From contig CAWCFX010000006.1 of the NCBI GenBank assembly GCA_963795085.1, forward strand, positions 1-64,000: a stretch of 64,000 bases of DNA. Direction: 5' to 3'. A program made the translations under genes and the position numbers. This document shows, in pieces, positions 17,378 to 37,592 of this stretch (its first letter is position 1; every line of letters starts with the position of its first letter). The stretch is from an uncultured Gemmatimonadales bacterium (GTDB taxonomy: Bacteria > Gemmatimonadota > Gemmatimonadetes > Gemmatimonadales > GWC2-71-9). The notes under the pieces were generated by a model, which worked only from the letters and a program-made list of their open reading frames with translations, did no database searches and was not told the origin of the DNA.

Positions 17378-17435
17378 GGGGCGATGGGTCTCCTGTCCTC
17401 GGGTATGCTGGCAGCAACATCCGCCAGGGTCATGC

Positions 17436-17553
17436 TTCGAGGCGCCTTAACGCACCTTGACCGGTGTGCGGCGGTGGCATCCAGCCAGGACAGACTTCGA
17501 GGCGCTCTCATTTTGCTCTGCGCTCATTGCGTTCATGCGCTTTGTAAGCCGAC
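17436..17553. repeat. Remnant of the GxxExxY-associated inverted-repeat family
   Basis: TTCGAGGCGCCTTAACGC at 17436 is identical to the sequence at 35348; a second TTCGAGGCGC lies at 17496, followed by degenerate CTCTGCG/TGCG motifs. Confidence 0.7.
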
Positions 17554-19514: not shown

Positions 19515-19550
19515 GGACGAAGCTAGGTAGTGAGAGATGCGGAGGTCAAG

Positions 19551-19676
19551 GGATTGAGGGAATTGTGGAATTGAGGGAATGTTGGAATTGAGGGAATTGA
19601 GGGAATGTTGGAATTGAGGGAATTGAGGGAATGTTGGAATTGAGGGAATTGAGGGAATGTTGGAATTGAGGGAATT
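19551..19676 (+). repeat. Tandem array of GGAATTGAG / GGAATGTT units (26-bp higher-order unit)
   Basis: Read directly: repeated GGAATGTT-GGAATTGAG-GGAATTGAG, ending at the stop codon of the four-helix-bundle gene. Confidence 0.95.
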
Positions 19677-20074
19677 TACTCCCTTCCTTCCTCCCGCCTC
19701 TGGTTTTGTCGGGCTGTCGCGCGAGTCGCCGTAAATATCGCGACCAGTTGCCCGGCCTCCGACAACGCTGAATCCAGGGCGGTGCCGGACAGGGTCCCCA
19801 AGTCTCTGGCGAACTCCAGCCAGAACTGCGACTCGTCAGCCTCCTCGAGGACCACGCCGATCTTGGAGATGAATTCCTTGCGGGACCTGGCCCGGCACGC
19901 CGCACGGTAGTTGGCTGCGACGGAAGTGCTCGAACGGATGAGCTGTCCAGCGACGTGTCTTCCGGATATGCTGGCCGGGGCGGACTCGCAAAGCCGGGTC
20001 GAATTCAGGGCAAAGTCCAAGGTGCGCTTGCGCATTGCGAGCTGCTTTTGCAGCGGACCGTCTGACGATCGCAT
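19676..20074 (-). CDS. Four helix bundle protein (23S rRNA IVS protein / TIGR02436-like)
   Basis: RTLDFA...QLIRSSTSVAANYRAACRARSRKEFISKIGVVLEEADESQFWLE; start is ATG 20074 or ATG 20035. Confidence 0.92.
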   Translation of the reverse strand: MRSSDGPLQKQLAMRKRTLDFALNSTRLCESAPASISGRHVAGQLIRSSTSVAANYRAACRARSRKEFISKIGVVLEEADESQFWLEFARDLGTLSGTALDSALSEAGQLVAIFTATRATARQNQRREEGRE

Positions 20075-20133
20075 GAACCAAACATGGGGAAGAAAGCTGA
20101 GAAATCATCATCCGAAAACCGCGAATCGGACCA

Positions 20134-20253
20134 AATTCCCTCAATTCCAACATTCCCTCAATTCCAACATTCCCTCAATTCCCAAATTCCCTCAATTCCA
20201 CCATTCCCTCAATTCCCACATTCCCTCAATTCCCCACATTCCCTCAATTCCCC
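20134..20253 (-). repeat. Tandem array of ~17-bp ATTCCCTCAATTCCAAC units, inverted relative to the 19551 array
   Basis: About 7 units; the reverse complement reads GGAATTGAG-GGAATGTT; overlaps the stop codon of the GWxTD gene. Confidence 0.95.
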
Positions 20254-22406: not shown

Positions 22407-22675
22407 CGACCAGCCGGAACTACAAAGCACGAAAGAAAGGGAAACGCGGGCCGACAATTTGCATTCTTACCTCGATTCGTCCATGAATCCCTAACTGCTC
22501 GAGCTACAACTTGAAATTCCGGCCTCGACTCTTATCCCTACACAGGCAACCGCGTGAACCATAAACGACGAAAGAAAAAGAACAACTTTGGAGAGGCAAT
22601 AGAGCGGCGGGTTTTTCTTCTTCTTTCCCACTTTGTCGTACCAGTGTTTTTGTCCATCCAGCAGGCATGCCCCCA

Positions 22676-24910: not shown

Positions 24911-27730
24911 TCAGAACTCCGAGTCGAAGCCGAGACCAAGGCGCACGGTTCCCCGCCGGGTGGCGGTACCGTCGCTGAGGGCGAGGGCCGCCCCCGTTCG
25001 GAGCCGGAGCGGCACATCGTATAAGACGACCAAGTCCCAGGTAACTTCCACGCCGGCGCTATGAATCCAGCCGGGACGGCCTGAAAATGGGGGTTCCCAC
25101 GCCCGGCCATGGTCATAGAAGAGTCGGAGACTGACCCGGTCAACGCCATAGGGCAAGTCCCAGAAGGGCTCCACCACCAGGGCGATGGGGATCCGGAGCT
25201 CCGCGCTGCCCACCGCCACGGTGCCGCCCCGGAGCTCCCCGGCTTCGAAGCCGCGTACCGGGAAGGCCCGCCCCGAGCCGACGACGATCCCCGGCAGGGG
25301 CTGGTACGTGATGCCGGACGCGCCCCCAACGCCGAAGGTTTCCCGATCCGGCCCCGACGAGGTGGCCGCGCTCACCCGTCCGGCAAGCACCGGATGGGCG
25401 AATCCGCCCAGCCCCTTGAGCGCCTGGTAGAGCGCCAGCCGGCCCCGCCACTCGTCGGACCCGCCCTCCCGGTCCAGCCGCCACCGCCGGCGGTACCGGA
25501 GGGACATGGTCGCACCATCCTCGTCGCTGATGGCGAGGGGCGGCCGCAAGGTGCGGCCTGCGGCGATGCCGACGCTGGCCGCACCATAGCTGGGGTTGAT
25601 GAAGTCCAGGTCCGGGTCGCTGCTGAAATGGTCTTCCTCGAAGTCCGCCGCCACCCGCAAGGTGAACGCCCGGTACCAGCGCCGCCCGGTGGAGTTGAAT
25701 CCGATCTCCGCGTCCCGCTCCCGGCTTACCACCGGCAGCGTATCCGGCGCGAAGACGACCAGCCCGGCATCGCCGTGGTCCTGGCCGAGGTACAGGTCCA
25801 CGGAGTGGCTGGCCCAGCGGCGATAGGTGAAGTAGAGCGAGGCGTCGAGCCGGCCGCCTTCGAATCCCCCGGCGAGCCGGGTCGAGTAGGCCAGCCGGCC
25901 AAGCGGGTCGCTGCCCGAAGTAAAGCCGCCGATGAAAAGACCGGCGGCGCCCTTGTCCACCAGGTACGGGATGAAATAGTGGGGGCGGAGGGCCGGCCAC
26001 GCCGCGTATCCGGTCGCCCTGACGGGCGTGGGGGAGGCCACCTCGGGAAGCGGCCGCTCCAGCACCCCGGGCCCCATGTCCTGCGCCGCCGGCCCGGTGG
26101 GCCAGGGAGTGCGCCGGACGGCCCAGCCATCCGCTTCCATCGAAGAGAAATAGAGCCAGCCCCCGTGGACCCCGGGCTGCCGGGCGCCGTAGGGTTCATC
26201 GGTCAGCTTTACCGGCTCGCCGTCGAGCGCCGTGAGATAGACCTGGGGCAATCCGCTCCGGTCGCTGACGTAGAGCAGCGTGTCATCCGTGACCCAGTTC
26301 GGGTCGGCGAGTACTTCGTTGGCCTGGCCGATGGTGAAGACATTGCCGGCCGAGTCGCCCTGGAGCCGGAGATGGTAAAACCCCCGGTAGTGCCAGGCCG
26401 CGGCCAGCCGGCCGGCGGGACTGATCGCGGGCGACGCGAACGACCCGGCCAGGCGCTGCTCGGTACGCGGACGAATCGAGTCGCCCCCCACCTGCACCAG
26501 CCGGTTGCCCTCGGGGCCCAGCTGCACCGCCACGATCTGGCCGGCGGCCACCGCGAGATCGGTCAGCCGCTGGCCGTGGGTGAGCCGCTGCCACCGCCCC
26601 CCGGCCAGCCGGTAGAGATCAGAGCGGTAGGTGGCCGAATTTTCCAGCTCGAGCCGGGTGGCGTAGAGCGTGTCGCCGGCCCAGGCCAGATCGACGCCGC
26701 CGGTGGTGAGATGGTGCTCCAGCCGGCCGTCGGCGCGGCGGATGACGATCTGGGGCGCCGCGTCTTCGCTCGCCTCGAACCAGGCCACGGCTCCGTCGCG
26801 GGAGACGGCGGGGGCGGGCGGCAGCCGCATCCCGCGGGCGATTACCTCGGAGCGCGACGGCGGCCGGTCGGCAACCTGGCGGCGGTAGTCATCGGCCAGG
26901 TCCTGCCAGAGGCTGTCCCGACGGAACCCGGTCGCCAACCGGAGCGGCCGGCCGGTACGGGTGGGAACCCACTGGCCCGAGGTCCGTTCGACCAGCCGCG
27001 AGACGGCAGAGTCTCCCCCGGCCACGGCGAGCCGCTCGAAGAACCGGGAGCCGAACGCGTAGGGGGCGACGCCGTCGGGCCAGTGCTCGGAGATGTAGGT
27101 CGCCTCGTTGGGCCGCGGCCACCGGCCCCCGCCGGCGCTGGACAAGAGCACCTCGGTGTGCAGGCTGCCATACACCCGGCCCCGGCCGGTGAGGTGGCTC
27201 TCGTACCAGGTGGCGATCCCTTCGGTGACCCAGGAGGGCTGATACAGGTTGGGAAAGGCGCCGGGCACCCGGCCCAGCACCGACTGCACCAGCCGCCAGG
27301 GTCCCTTCACCCGGTCCAGGTGGAAGATGTGGGTCAGCTCGTGGACGATGACGGTGCGGAGCCAGTCGTCGTAGTTCTGGAGGTCCGGCTCGGCGGTGGG
27401 TGGTGCCAGCAGCAGGGTGATCCGGTTGCTGGGAAAGATGCTGGCGGCGCCGTTGGAGAAGTCGGCGGCATCGCTCAGCACGATATCCACGTCCTGCCGC
27501 GGGGGGACCAGTTCCCGGGAGAGAAGCGTGTAGGCCCGCTCGGCTTCCCTCGCGGCATGCTGCGCGACCGAGTCGTAGCCGGCGCGGAAGTGGAGGCGGA
27601 AGTGCTCGGTGTGAAGGGTGCGCCAGGAACCGGCCGGGTTGACCTGGGCCGGGAGGGGAGCGCCGAAGACAACGACAACCAGGAACAGCCAGAATATTCG
27701 GGTCAGTTTTCGTCCTTTACTTGCGGGCAT
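24911..27730 (-). CDS. Outer-membrane protein: zincin-like HExxH domain, beta-propeller, Omp85/BamA-like barrel
   Basis: Signal peptide; WRTLHTEHF, VHELTHIFH, WVTEGIA; YVSDRSGLPQVY (PD40-like); VRGF...SAELRIP; C-terminal Phe. Confidence 0.75.
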   Translation of the reverse strand: MPASKGRKLTRIFWLFLVVVVFGAPLPAQVNPAGSWRTLHTEHFRLHFRAGYDSVAQHAAREAERAYTLLSRELVPPRQDVDIVLSDAADFSNGAASIFPSNRITLLLAPPTAEPDLQNYDDWLRTVIVHELTHIFHLDRVKGPWRLVQSVLGRVPGAFPNLYQPSWVTEGIATWYESHLTGRGRVYGSLHTEVLLSSAGGGRWPRPNEATYISEHWPDGVAPYAFGSRFFERLAVAGGDSAVSRLVERTSGQWVPTRTGRPLRLATGFRRDSLWQDLADDYRRQVADRPPSRSEVIARGMRLPPAPAVSRDGAVAWFEASEDAAPQIVIRRADGRLEHHLTTGGVDLAWAGDTLYATRLELENSATYRSDLYRLAGGRWQRLTHGQRLTDLAVAAGQIVAVQLGPEGNRLVQVGGDSIRPRTEQRLAGSFASPAISPAGRLAAAWHYRGFYHLRLQGDSAGNVFTIGQANEVLADPNWVTDDTLLYVSDRSGLPQVYLTALDGEPVKLTDEPYGARQPGVHGGWLYFSSMEADGWAVRRTPWPTGPAAQDMGPGVLERPLPEVASPTPVRATGYAAWPALRPHYFIPYLVDKGAAGLFIGGFTSGSDPLGRLAYSTRLAGGFEGGRLDASLYFTYRRWASHSVDLYLGQDHGDAGLVVFAPDTLPVVSRERDAEIGFNSTGRRWYRAFTLRVAADFEEDHFSSDPDLDFINPSYGAASVGIAAGRTLRPPLAISDEDGATMSLRYRRRWRLDREGGSDEWRGRLALYQALKGLGGFAHPVLAGRVSAATSSGPDRETFGVGGASGITYQPLPGIVVGSGRAFPVRGFEAGELRGGTVAVGSAELRIPIALVVEPFWDLPYGVDRVSLRLFYDHGRAWEPPFSGRPGWIHSAGVEVTWDLVVLYDVPLRLRTGAALALSDGTATRRGTVRLGLGFDSEF

Positions 27731-27751
27731 CAGGCCACGACGCACCGCATA

Positions 27752-27882
27752 TTCCGAGGCGCTTTAACGCAGAGAGCGCAGAATGAACTGAGAGAAGGCG
27801 GAAACCAGGAACAGGTCCTTAGTTGTTGAACTGCGACCTTGTTGTTCAACTGGGCGTATCTCCGCGTTAATGTGCCTCGGAA
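27752..27882. mobile_element. MITE-like element, copy 1, with GxxExxY-type terminal inverted repeats
   Basis: Left TTCCGAGGCGCTTTAACGC; right GCGTTAATGTGCCTCGGAA; internal GTTGAAC...GTTCAAC inverted pair; no credible gene. Confidence 0.6.
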
Positions 27883-27948
27883 CCAGAATCCATTCCGACC
27901 TTCAACACCCAGCCCGGTTGCGGGCGTCAGGCCCCGACGCACCGCCTA

Positions 27949-28081
27949 TTCCGAGGCGCTTTAACGCAGAGAACACAGAAATGAACCGCGAGAACGCGGA
28001 AACCATGAACTAGTCCTTAGTTGTTGAACTGCGGCCTCGTTGTTCAACTCAGCGTCTCTCCGCGTTAATGTAGCCTCGGAA
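27949..28081. mobile_element. MITE-like element, copy 2
   Basis: Left TTCCGAGGCGCTTTAACGC; right GCGTTAATGTAGCCTCGGAA; same internal inverted pair. Confidence 0.6.
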
Positions 28082-28119
28082 CCGGAATCCATTCCGTCAT
28101 TCAACACCCAGCCCGGTAC

Positions 28120-33904: not shown

Positions 33905-35310
33905 GAATCGCCTTTACCTTCGGCGGCGGCGCCCGGGCGGGCCACACCGAAGAGTTCAGCCAGCCCTTCGTGCAGATCGGCCGGCACCCCCACTGCGACC
34001 TCCGCTTCGATCCCGACCGGGATCTCGACGTCTCCAGCCGCCACGCCACCGTGCTGCTGCAGGGCGAGATGTTCACCCTCCGCGACCTGGGCAGCACCAA
34101 CGGCACCTTCCTGAACGGGAAGCGGATCACCGCCGACCATGTCATCACCAGCGGCGACGAGATCCAGTTCGGCAAGCAGGGTCCCCGCGTCACGGTGCAG
34201 GTCCTCCGGCAGCAGCGCACCGGAGCGGGGCAGACGCTGCCGGAGCCGGCGGTGGAAACCCCGGCCCCGCCGGCCCCCAGGATCGAGCGGTCGGTGCGGC
34301 GCACCCCGCCGGGCCAGACCACGACCCGCATCAAGGTGGAAGTGGCCCGGCAGACCGCGACCCTGCGGCGGACCACGGTTATCCTGCTGGGGCTGCTCTT
34401 CGTGCTGGCGGCGGCCTATCTCTGGCAGAGCATCACCGCCTCCCGGCGGATCGACCAGGAACGGGCCGACCTGCTCCGCATGGCCGACAGCCTCGCCGCG
34501 GCCTACCAGGCGGTGCAGGCCAACGTAGCCTCGCTGCAGGGCGCTCTCGACTCGGCGCAGGCGGAGACCGCGCGGCTCCGGGCCCGGATCGGCCAGGGCG
34601 GGGACGCCTCCGAGTTGAGCGAGCTGCGGGCCCAGCTGCAGCTCGCCCAGCGGCGGCAGGCCAGCATCTCGGTGGCCGCCTCCTTCGACCCCGCCCCCAT
34701 CAACCGGGCCAACCGGGACGGCATCGCGGTCGTCATCGTGGAGTTCAACGACGGCAGCGTCCGCACCGGGTCGGGATTCGCGGTGCGCTCGGCCAACGAC
34801 CAGGTCCTGCTGCTGACCAACCGCCACGTGGTGACCGGCCCCGACGGCAACCCGCCCCGGCGGATCGGCGCGATCTTCAACGGGTCCAGCCAGAACTTCC
34901 CCACCACCCTGGTGGCCACCCACCCCGATGCGCGGGTGGACGTCGCCCTCCTCAACGTGCCGCTCCGGGGCGGCGTGGAGACGGTCATCTCCATCGCCGC
35001 CACCGTGGTGCCCGAGGAAGGCGACCCGGTGGCGATCATCGGGTTCCCGCTCGGGCTCGACATGGCGATGGGCGGCGAATGGCAGCGGGTGGGGGTGTCC
35101 ACGTCACTCAATACCGGGACCATGAGCAAGGTGCTCGACAACCAGCTGGTCCTGACCGGCTACGGCGCGGCCGGAATGAGCGGCAGCCCGATCTTCAATG
35201 CCCGGGGCCAGGTGATCGGGATCGTGTACGGCGGCCAGCGGGACAGCCAGGGCCGGGTGGTGCTGGGCGTGCCAATCCGGTTTGCGCGGGAGGTGCTGGC
35301 CGGGAGGTAG
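33901..35310 (+). CDS. FHA domain - TM - coiled coil - trypsin-like serine protease
   Basis: GTG at 33901 (GTGA overlap); IGR...SSRHA...DLGSTNGT; TM; triad TNRHVV / VDVALL / GMSGSP. Confidence 0.88.
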   Translation: MRIAFTFGGGARAGHTEEFSQPFVQIGRHPHCDLRFDPDRDLDVSSRHATVLLQGEMFTLRDLGSTNGTFLNGKRITADHVITSGDEIQFGKQGPRVTVQVLRQQRTGAGQTLPEPAVETPAPPAPRIERSVRRTPPGQTTTRIKVEVARQTATLRRTTVILLGLLFVLAAAYLWQSITASRRIDQERADLLRMADSLAAAYQAVQANVASLQGALDSAQAETARLRARIGQGGDASELSELRAQLQLAQRRQASISVAASFDPAPINRANRDGIAVVIVEFNDGSVRTGSGFAVRSANDQVLLLTNRHVVTGPDGNPPRRIGAIFNGSSQNFPTTLVATHPDARVDVALLNVPLRGGVETVISIAATVVPEEGDPVAIIGFPLGLDMAMGGEWQRVGVSTSLNTGTMSKVLDNQLVLTGYGAAGMSGSPIFNARGQVIGIVYGGQRDSQGRVVLGVPIRFAREVLAGR

Positions 35311-35347
35311 CGGGTTTGCGTGCAGCCAGGTCGTCCAGGCCTGGAGG

Positions 35348-35890
35348 TTCGAGGCGCCTTAACGCCGAGAACTCAAGTGGCGATCGAGTTACCGTGGCTC
35401 ACCCATCGTTAGGGACCGCGGCAGATCTGGGGACGGCGGGCGGAGTGGAAACCACCGGTCCTTGGTAGTTATTGACTCTCCTGACAATCCCATTCTTAAG
35501 CATGACCTCGTGAAAATTAATAAGTAATCCTACCTGACGACCGCTGAGGCGCAGGTGTGAGAGAAGCTGTGCCTTGTGAACCGGGAGGATCTTCTCCTGT
35601 GCCTTGATCTCAACGATAACCTGATCCGCGACCAGCAGGTCTATCCGATACCCTATCTCAAGCCTGACGCCGTCATACACAAGGGGAAGGCCGACCTGAC
35701 GGGCAACCGCTAGGTCCGCTTTCTCCAGTTCGTGAACGAGGCATGCTTCGTAGGAATTCTCCAGCACTCCGGGACCCAGCCTGGAATGGACCCGAATAGC
35801 ACACCCAATAATCGTGGTCGTGATTTCATCTGGCTCCATCCTGCGTTCTCTGTCTGGCATTCTGCGTGCCCTGCGTTAGAGCGCCTCGAA
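35348..35890. mobile_element. Candidate element: GxxExxY gene between ~20-bp terminal inverted repeats
   Basis: Left TTCGAGGCGCCTTAACGCCG (35348); right CTGCGTTAGAGCGCCTCGAA (35871-35890, reverse complement TTCGAGGCGCTCTAACGCAG); interior visibly lower in GC than the flanks. Confidence 0.55.
35399..35839 (-). CDS. GxxExxY protein (PD-(D/E)XK nuclease-like family)
   Basis: IIGCAIRVHSRLGPGVLENSYE...RIDLLV...IVEIKA...AQLLSHLRL...GLLINF. Confidence 0.95.
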   Translation of the reverse strand: MEPDEITTTIIGCAIRVHSRLGPGVLENSYEACLVHELEKADLAVARQVGLPLVYDGVRLEIGYRIDLLVADQVIVEIKAQEKILPVHKAQLLSHLRLSGRQVGLLINFHEVMLKNGIVRRVNNYQGPVVSTPPAVPRSAAVPNDG

Positions 35891-35966
35891 ACCCGACACA
35901 CTCTAGGTGCCAGCCGCGCGGACACTACTATCGGAAAAATGAGAGCCGGCCCGAATTCACGCGAAC

Positions 35967-37592
35967 CTATTTCAGCAGCACCCAGCCCAACCCCAGCATC
36001 CCCCCCAGAATCACCACCACCCACACCAGCCACCGCCCCCCGTCCCGCGCCAGGTTGTCCAGCGGCGTGAGCCCGGTGCGTTCCCGCACCGGTCGCCACC
36101 ACCCTCCGGGCCGGATCCGGGCATAGAACCGGTCCAGCACCGCCTCCCGCTCCGGCCGCGTCAGGAAGGTCACCGGCAGCCAGATCGCCATGGTCCCGAA
36201 GGTGGTGAACGAAAGCCGCAGGCCCCAGCTCCACGGGTGCAGGCTCGCATATATCGCCAGCACCACGCCCACCAGCATCGCCACGATCTCGGTCCACGCG
36301 TTGATCCGCCACCAGAACCAGCGCAGCAGCAGCACGATGCCGGTCCCGCTTCCGATCAGCACCAGGAACCGGAACACCTGGCCCACGCTCTCCATGAAGA
36401 ACGAGAGCGCCGCCGCGGCCAGGGTGATGCCGACCGAGGCCCAGCGCGCCGCCCGGAGCAGGCGGACTTCATCCTTTTCGCCGGTGAACCGCCCGTAGAG
36501 ATCATGGACGAGATAGCTGGCGCCCCAGTTCACCTGGGTGGACACGGTGGACATGAACGCAGCCACCAGGCTCGCGAAGACCAGGCCGAGGAGTCCGGCG
36601 GGAAGGTAGCGCACCATCATGAGGGGGTAGGCCATCTCCGGGTCTTCCAGCCCGGGCATGACCAGCAGGGCGGCGAGGCCCACCAGCACCCAGGGCCAGG
36701 TTCGTACGACGTAGTTGAGGATGTTGAACGCGTGGGCCGCCTTGGCCGCCTCCTTCTCGTTGGCGGTGGAGGCCAGCCGCTGCACGAACATGCCGCCGCC
36801 GTCACTGTTCCGGTACGCCCACCACTGGACCCCGATGTAGCCCAGGAAGGTGAGCATGGGGACCATCGCCTCGGGCCCGGTCGGCACCAGGTCCAGCCGG
36901 GCGCCCTCTCCCTGGGCCCGGAGGGCGTCGGTCATCGCCCCGAGCCCGCCCACTTCGTTCAGGGCATACACCATCACGATGAGCGCACCCGCCATGGCCA
37001 GGATGTACTGGATGAAATCGGTCGCCACCACGCCCCAGAGCCCGGACGCCGCGGTATAGATGAGGGTGATCAACACGATGGGGAGAATGGCCCAGAGCCG
37101 GGGGTCGCCGGGCAGCGCCGGCAGGCTGTCCAGGATGCCCAGTGCCAGGACCACTTTGCGCATGGCCAGCATGCCATAGCCGATGCCGATGCAGTTGAGC
37201 GGCACCGCCAGCAGGAAGGCCCGGCTGGCGCGCAGCACCGCGGCGGGGCGCCCGCCATACCGCAGCTCGGTGAACTCCATGTCGGTCAGCACCTGGGCCC
37301 GCCGCCACAGCTTGGCCAGCAGCACCGCGAGCAGCACGTGGGCAAAGGCGAAGCTCCACCACTCCCAGTTGCCCGCGACCCCCGCCTGCGCCACCCGCCC
37401 CGCGATGTAGAGCGGGGTGTCCACGTTGAAGGTGGCCGCCGCCATGGACGTCGCCGCCAGCCACCACGGGATCGCCCGGCCGCCCACGAAAAACTCGGCC
37501 AGGTTGCGGCTGCCCCGCCGGGCCACGTACAGCCCGAGGAACAGCGACCCGCCGAGGTAGAGCGCGACGATCAGCCAGTCGAGGAGAGCCAT
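35967..37592 (-). CDS. Sodium:solute symporter family transporter
   Basis: Many TM segments; FFVGGR.IPWW, SGLWGVVATD.IQ, AAFMST. Confidence 0.92.
   Translation of the reverse strand: MALLDWLIVALYLGGSLFLGLYVARRGSRNLAEFFVGGRAIPWWLAATSMAAATFNVDTPLYIAGRVAQAGVAGNWEWWSFAFAHVLLAVLLAKLWRRAQVLTDMEFTELRYGGRPAAVLRASRAFLLAVPLNCIGIGYGMLAMRKVVLALGILDSLPALPGDPRLWAILPIVLITLIYTAASGLWGVVATDFIQYILAMAGALIVMVYALNEVGGLGAMTDALRAQGEGARLDLVPTGPEAMVPMLTFLGYIGVQWWAYRNSDGGGMFVQRLASTANEKEAAKAAHAFNILNYVVRTWPWVLVGLAALLVMPGLEDPEMAYPLMMVRYLPAGLLGLVFASLVAAFMSTVSTQVNWGASYLVHDLYGRFTGEKDEVRLLRAARWASVGITLAAAALSFFMESVGQVFRFLVLIGSGTGIVLLLRWFWWRINAWTEIVAMLVGVVLAIYASLHPWSWGLRLSFTTFGTMAIWLPVTFLTRPEREAVLDRFYARIRPGGWWRPVRERTGLTPLDNLARDGGRWLVWVVVILGGMLGLGWVLLK

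Follow-up and report, generated by a model that had tools for sequence, protein, structure and literature searches.

A small gene for a GxxExxY protein in the genome of an uncultured Gemmatimonadales bacterium lies between two inverted, bipartite arms, and gene-less pairs of the same arms are dispersed through this genome and are present or absent, site by site, between related genomes. The locus was found in the window, that is, the whole 64,000-nucleotide stretch of DNA that was analysed. We propose that it is a selfish cassette with non-autonomous derivatives and that the GxxExxY protein could be its mover, a reading to which we give a probability of roughly 0.45. The system is real, RAYT-like in its logic, unlike RAYT in its chemistry and undescribed in the literature searched, and its mechanism is inferred.

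From outer box to outer box, the cassette measures about 606 bp (35317-35922). It sits between two convergent neighbours, as the earlier note on this DNA had described, namely an FHA/trypsin gene that ends at 35310 on the plus strand and a sodium:solute symporter gene that ends at 35967 on the minus strand. Its parts are as follows.

35317-35324, plus strand: outer box of the downstream arm (TGCGTGCA), the likely left end of the cassette
35348-35369, plus strand: head of the downstream arm, which reads into the cassette
35399-35839, minus strand: gene for a GxxExxY protein of the predicted PD-(D/E)XK type, 146 aa from the second Met
35840-35890, minus strand: head of the upstream arm with inner CGCAG units, an array that reaches the start codon
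35915-35922, minus strand: outer box of the upstream arm (1 mismatch), the likely right end of the cassette

The 20-mers first described as terminal inverted repeats do lie at 35348-35367 (plus) and 35871-35890 (minus) and are inverted; they are sub-terminal rather than terminal, with the conserved outer box about 31 nt further out. The left outer box starts 6 nt past the stop codon of the FHA/trypsin gene. The full ORF runs from 35860 to 35399 on the minus strand (153 aa from 35860), and the second Met, at 35839, is likely the start codon since the closest homologues begin there. The interior is lower in GC, as had been reported (0.55 for the ORF versus 0.71 and 0.69 in the two neighbours); GC at third positions is 0.61 versus 0.95 in the neighbours, and the codon use of the gene is foreign to the genome. 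A sigma-70 scan gave 0 sites. In this gene-bearing copy the 9-bp inner array behind the downstream head is decayed, and the conserved end of the protein is separated from that head by about 19 codons more than in the rest of the clade, which suggests that the copy may be past its best. Its inverted-arm score is 26, below the family cut-off of 28.

Profile searches bore out the identity of the gene. The ORF scored 131.6 bits against PF13366, its sole Pfam match (cut-off 22), and 137.8 bits against TIGR04256 GxxExxY (cut-off 35). PF13366 is a very large family, at least 7,937 of 8,000 scored candidates passing E 1e-10. A structure model (pLDDT 86.9) had restriction-endonuclease-like proteins as its top structural matches, tied at Z 7.9 (rmsd 3.6, 101 aligned), 7.8 (2.7, 93) and 7.7 (9.2, 112), and it also resembles Cas4, lambda-type exonucleases and Hjc with tied, middling scores of Z up to 7.9. 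Foldseek with the protein model returned 0 matches at E 0.001, a sequence search against solved structures returned 0 matches at E 10, and no transposase or recombinase occurs among the best 50 structural matches listed. Residues E34, Y37, D74, E84, K86 and Q98 are present (numbering from 35860), and the active-site residues are conserved in 95-97 of 97 GxxExxY loci. On the model, the protein is a PF13366 member with a restriction-endonuclease-like fold over its whole ordered length and with the fold and residues of the PD-(D/E)XK superfamily, and is a predicted nuclease by both; assigned to PF13366, it shows no DDE, HUH or serine/tyrosine recombinase fold. The changes Y102H, V88Q and N117H were considered as signs of decay, and this was rejected, as they are traits of the protein clade, with Q88, H102 and H117 as clade markers (same numbering). 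In the available part of PMC3424549, PF13366 stands among families without a known function and is noted for multiple transfers, and in the available part of 10.1101/2021.01.26.428298 GxxExxY is mentioned only beside a reverse transcriptase.

We searched the genome of the window (G000) and those of the congeners G001-G004. The genome-wide scan that the earlier note had suggested gave 23 exact copies of the motif in G000 versus 0 for the reversed pattern, and a matrix gave 37 matches at ≥16 bits versus 0 in the reversed genome. Strong arms, defined as the 33 matches at ≥23 bits, form 12 inward-facing close pairs; 11 of these are gene-less and 1 is gene-bearing, the combination of gene, inverted arms and gene-less derivatives that had been proposed from the window. 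In the gene-less pairs the heads are 115-188 bp apart, while 9 of the 33 arms are unpaired, some being truncated or having a degenerate partner. In the 7 regions for which genes were called, with a crude ORF caller, every arm falls between genes. Within the window, the motif occurs 7 times at ≤2 mismatches versus a shuffle mean of 2.5, a count of 7 being reached in 2 of 100 shuffles, so that the number within the window is not decisive by itself. The gene-less recurrences at 17436, 27752 and 27949 were recovered, and lie in three elements.

27722-27911, no strand assigned: gene-less pair 1, with its left box at 27722, heads at 27753 (plus) and 27881 (minus) and a degenerate right box
27919-28110, no strand assigned: gene-less pair 2, which repeats pair 1 in tandem over 197 bp, starting at the outer box
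17406-17545, no strand assigned: decayed gene-less element with a box, a head cut after TAACGC and a remnant of the opposite arm

The last of these has a second partial head at about 17496, and further motif sites lie at 27864-27878 (minus) and, degenerate, near 28060-28082 (minus). Among the congeners, a close variant of the motif has 16 matches in G003, 34 in G004 and 0 in G001 and G002 at ≤1 mismatch. A viral scan gave 1 match, without box or partner, which we took as chance. Nested elements were also seen: at G000:C1:21039-21435 a pair of the GxxExxY-cassette family encloses a ACAAAGCACGAA-type pair.

Each arm is built, in order, of an outer box TGCG(T/G/C)GCR, a variable spacer, the head and then 9-bp-phased CGC(A/C)GAG units. 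In the aligned arms the box lies 36-40 nt outside the head; many transposon ends start with TG, as it does. At ≤1 mismatch the box was found in 16 of 33 G000 arms and 27 of 34 G003/G004 arms (43 of 67 in total; the 34 come from 15 loci, out of 50 matches). A control window placed another 30 nt to the outside gave 2 of 33 and 1 of 34 (3 of 67), and randomly chosen places gave 167 of 5000. The counts are somewhat circular because the box was derived by eye from the same arms. An independent check on the cassette ends is that similarity among copies ends at the outer box. Two G004 copies 721 bp apart have 100% identical spacers and agree at 2 of 8 bases in the flank outside the box, and the tandem pair of the window has a spacer identity of 0.91 and agrees at 1 of 8; of the 20 similar pairs listed, those that depart from this are copies behind another arm, tandem neighbours and orthologous copies. 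Over the 67 arms, the offset of CGC(A/C)G from the head is +9 (61 counts), +18 (30) or +38/39 (33).

Single arms hold no palindrome, with a mean folding z of 0.06 to -0.21 (43 arms, RNA and DNA parameters, both strands). A hairpin between outer box and head was considered and rejected, there being neither covariation nor a folding signal. Across 26 pairs, complementarity between partner arms versus arms of different pairs was 7.3 versus 8.3 in the spacer, 19.2 versus 19.0 in the head (p 0.05) and 11.2 versus 11.1 in the inner part (p 0.43). That partner spacers are the less alike would be expected if left and right arms are distinct and each copy inherits both, and since the arms are non-palindromic and partners show no covariation, they resemble putative phased binding sites.

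No target-site duplication was detected, in line with the earlier note, the longest shared flank word being 3.29 versus 3.34 in shuffled pairings (p 0.64, 21 pairs); at locus L057 there is a possible 5-bp repeat, offset by 12 nt. By-eye inspection of the spacers as guides matching the flanks revealed nothing. Several half-arms end after TAACGC. A fixed cut site at that place was considered and dropped, given that shorter truncations exist and that such ends could be detected over a narrow range only. Tandem 53-bp modules and half-arms (box, spacer, head) at G000:C6:420897-421004 and at C3:351039, 352653 and 366907 stop soon after TA(A/C)CGC.

Comparison with the congeners confirmed the expectation of empty sites in relatives. 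G002 and G004 lack the cassette at the orthologous site, where the flanking genes are adjacent with a short unalignable spacer between them and yield no exact breakpoints for the gene-bearing copy; in G001 a gene-less pair of another repeat family lies behind the left gene. G000 gene-less pairs were not found at 4 orthologous congener sites (9 alignments), in 2 of which a different repeat family occupies the same place. In the reverse direction, 7 sites of G003 and G004 could be aligned to G000. Three of them are insertions of about 190-265 bp at places where stop and start codons overlap in G000, one has another family in G000, one is without an arm in G000, and the last two are a single site common to G003 and G004, without G000. 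From one site to the next, either G000 or a congener may be the genome that has the gene-less pair. Fixed inverted ends and presence or absence at orthologous sites, the marks of IS/MITE-type elements, were both observed at 72-79% genome identity. At L057 the flank homology stops exactly at the left box; the other empty-site junctions have 10-35 extra bases, and at this genome identity their exact junction base is not readable. The three insertions at overlapping codons are L057, L290 and L272, and L057 carries a purine-rich, ribosome-site-like stretch between its right box and the start codon. Local clusters of copies occur, and some of these copies have common flanks. The same intergenic places also hold different repeat families (window 17436, 27753 and 35310 versus L313, L314 and L023, and likewise L278 versus G000:C1:155731-156185), which suggests shared hot spots or shared tolerance.

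To relate proteins to arms, we collected 110 GxxExxY loci, 30 from relatives and 80 from the genome collection, and dropped 13 for short flanks or a partial or missing match. Flanking inverted repeats scored ≥28 in 63 of the remaining 97 loci versus 3 of 351 shifted controls; direct repeats reached the same score in 23 of 97, and two rows in the set gave identical arms. The commonest arm is roughly TTTAACC(A/G)CAGAG followed by 9-bp units, and the GAGGCGC head is particular to the protein clade of the window gene. The earlier note had held that its proposal should fall if other GxxExxY loci lacked the motif. The three other GxxExxY genes of G000 literally do lack the clade head, and the proposal survives because every paralogue is flanked by inward-facing arms particular to it. 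Of the 4 GxxExxY genes of G000, 3 are accompanied by gene-less copies of the respective arms and 1 is without; the two paralogue arm families with such copies comprise 7 arms and about 99 matches (23 in the control), respectively. The larger, ACAAAGCACGAA-type family flanks the GxxExxY gene at G000:C1:823891-824220 (23 matches being in the reversed genome), and a gene-less pair of this type is seen in the window at 22410 and 22648.

For loci of the genus, arm similarity rises with protein identity (rho 0.38, p 0.0005, 27 of 30 loci), in a set of non-independent kin that includes orthologous loci and one wrongly picked arm. At 18 loci the closest protein lies between unrelated or untestable flanks; closest protein and closest arm coincide in 10 of these, and in 9 of the 10 at which the protein identity is ≥62%. 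The downstream arm is often read through by the gene among the best 120 protein matches, giving the tail SALKRLE or SAVKRP as the translation of the arm's reverse strand, and a head read-through tail is carried by 17 of 20 long-tailed Q88 proteins versus 2 of 33 long-tailed proteins without Q88. In another GxxExxY clade (P0058, P0061, P0067, P0083 and others) the tails are TTESTEFHG, which looks like the sense translation of the arm right behind the gene.

Head and clade gene are both present in G000 and in G004, where the clade gene stands at another locus (67% to P0002); the cognate genes of the two genomes share just 66% identity and could have arrived independently. A search of 400 further genomes of the phylum (G001-G004 excluded) found neither the head nor the close clade (best 59%), and the close clade is absent from the metagenome loci, among the at least 80 listed, which were left out of all counts. 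The congeners have 0 to 15 GxxExxY matches each, with 11 in G003 and 15 in G004, most of which carry a different arm family. The clade and arm data show that gene and arms travel together; recognition is not implied by co-travel itself, and simple co-travel would give the association of clade and arm too.

A second gene of the window is packaged in a comparable way.

19676-20074, minus strand: four-helix-bundle gene (PF05635), in a cassette region at 19545-20250

Long inverted arrays built of GAATTGAGG-type units lie on both sides of this gene, which does not belong to a nuclease family. Its packaging is of the same kind as that of the GxxExxY cassette, whereas fold and repeat unit differ, so that the packaging is not tied to one fold. 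No description of PF05635 genes in inverted short-repeat arrays as a mobile system was found in the literature searched.

Fixed ends, phased sites, a clade-matched nuclease and gene-less copies of variable presence at gene junctions are best explained, in our view, by a selfish cassette. The case is built on the anatomy of the arms, their ends, presence and absence between genomes, the association of clade and arm, the intact active-site residues and the nuclease fold; binding, cutting and the role of the GxxExxY protein, rather than another factor, as mover are inferred. The protein would bind phased sites of its own arms on double-stranded DNA, with the outer box at about -37 and further sites at +9, +18 and +38/39 relative to the head, and would cut or nick at or near the outer boxes. 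Recombination or repair by the host would then place a copy of the stretch from box to box at another gene junction, in most cases close by and without target-site duplication, and gene-less units of about 180-200 bp, which retain both arms, would be moved in trans. With an arm sequence of its own for each protein clade, several families could coexist in one genome. Some observations speak against the protein as mover. The four-helix-bundle gene shows that such packaging can hold another fold, and the empty-site junctions have their extra bases. G003 has its 16 arm matches, but no clade gene was found there (best 55-56%; the assembly is 81% complete). Further, 1 of the 4 G000 families has no gene-less copy, copies cluster locally, and one pair is common to G003 and G004 at an orthologous site. 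No strand-transfer activity is known, either, for a lone 146-aa PD-(D/E)XK domain.

The arms alone could be the mobile unit and the nuclease its cargo, with another trans-acting factor (a host recombinase, a transposase or a repair pathway) moving any content. The similar packaging of the four-helix-bundle gene in the same window, the G003 arms just mentioned and the pair that encloses a pair of another family all fit such a scheme, as does the occurrence of Y1 transposase genes in all 5 congeners searched, one of them 3 kb from the largest arm cluster. In contrast, the head was found at 0 of 17 Y1 loci, with a best score of 3.5 bits versus 33 and 38 at the GxxExxY gene, and the arms lack a palindrome for an HUH enzyme (mean folding z about 0, 43 arms). 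The near-complete retention of the active-site residues (95-97 of 97 loci) also speaks against cargo, and in the annotated regions the head pairs of this arm family closely enclose no second gene family. We consider this explanation unlikely. The Y1 gene near the cluster, G000:C3:370563-370910 (L358), has its own repeats, unrelated to the cassette head.

The arms might also serve autoregulation or a host role, nearer to the picture of a domesticated RAYT, in which the protein binds and perhaps nicks them, the gene arrives by ordinary horizontal transfer and the gene-less spread is a by-product of local duplication and repair. Consistent with this, the upstream array reaches the start codon, the copies form local clusters, tandem units and truncated half-arms, and several other GxxExxY cassettes are common to G003 and G004 with homologous flanks; matches are also rare on plasmids (8 of 72,556 records) and number 0 in 50,697 phage records. 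Yet isolated gene junctions, empty in congeners, hold single pairs, and the flanks just outside the box are unrelated between copies whose spacers are identical, which is not expected from plain tandem duplication. On balance such a role seems about as unlikely as the cargo reading. A function in RNA, where inward-facing pairs could make a long stem (a terminator, a stabiliser or a processed-out, IVS-like stem) and the protein would act on RNA, is improbable: the annotated arms are all intergenic and PF05635 takes its name from 23S rRNA intervening sequences, but complementarity is no higher within pairs than between arms taken from different pairs, Rfam gave 0 matches at E up to 1 over window positions 15000-38000, and spacings fixed at 9 and 20-21 bp suit a double helix.

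The selfish cassette recalls several known systems. The earlier note had likened it to an IS/MITE or RAYT/REP pair, and the likeness holds for the layout; it does not extend to the enzymology, for there is no HUH enzyme, no palindrome, no target-site duplication and no known transposase. In REPtrons and TIRtrons, according to the available parts of PMC3733652 and PMC5581495, RAYT or TIRYT tyrosine (HUH) transposase genes are flanked by REPs or long TIRs. On that description they share with the cassette one gene between inverted arms, intergenic gene-less dimers or clusters (here 11 gene-less close pairs and 33 arms) and several gene-arm families per genome. Unlike them, the cassette encodes a predicted PD-(D/E)XK protein rather than HUH/Y1, the only gene enclosed between its arms being of PF13366; its single arms are non-palindromic and bipartite with a 9-bp-phased array, and its gene family is multicopy and patchy (0 to 15 per congener). 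With IS/MITE systems, as the available part of PMC3733652 presents them, it has in common a gene-bearing element, short gene-less derivatives with the same inverted ends and presence or absence between relatives, but it lacks a target-site duplication and a DDE transposase match. Its arms are also imperfect, its spacer is variable, and there are no near-identical distant gene-bearing copies.

The fold itself has precedents in mobility. TnsA acts together with a DDE partner, a homing endonuclease converts a single fixed allelic site, and XisH assists a recombinase. The cassette, unlike these, is one small gene with many unrelated sites and gene-less copies; in place of the single allelic site of a homing endonuclease, clade genes stand at different loci in G000 and G004 and gene-less pairs are dispersed. 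Tn7 TnsA, the homing endonucleases I-Ssp6803I and I-Bth0305I, and XisH are given in the available part of PMC3424549 as PD-(D/E)XK proteins in mobile DNA, so the same fold is used for mobility there. PMC11855218, in the part available, deals with an HNH insertion and does not apply, and that of PMC4679880 concerns direct heptamer repeats. No description of the pairing of a GxxExxY gene with such arms was found in the literature searched, which lay mostly outside subscription journals and comprised texts without their supplements. New from this locus are the outer box as the end of the unit, the lack of covariation between partner arms, and the tail read-through that marks the linkage of clade and arm.

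The locus makes the question of PF13366 function directly testable, since it offers one protein and a cognate arm with a defined outer end, together with paralogous arms as specificity controls, Q88, H102 and H117 as candidate specificity residues, and natural empty sites. The GxxExxY loci of G003 and G004 are a compact set for specificity tests. Should the protein move the arms, mobility would have a mechanism not described before, and the family would be a natural library of small sequence-specific nucleases, each with its matched target; should it not, another mover of intergenic units without target-site duplication must exist. More broadly, and tentatively, with chances that we place short of even, GxxExxY genes may define a cross-phylum class of mobile elements, in which a single small PD-(D/E)XK nuclease would read the phased sites of clade-specific bipartite ends and drive box-to-box copying without target-site duplication, with a MITE-like load of gene-less copies. 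Should that be true, PF13366 would gain a function, a large class of intergenic 8-9-bp repeats would be explained, and mobility chemistry would extend beyond the DDE, HUH, serine and tyrosine enzymes.
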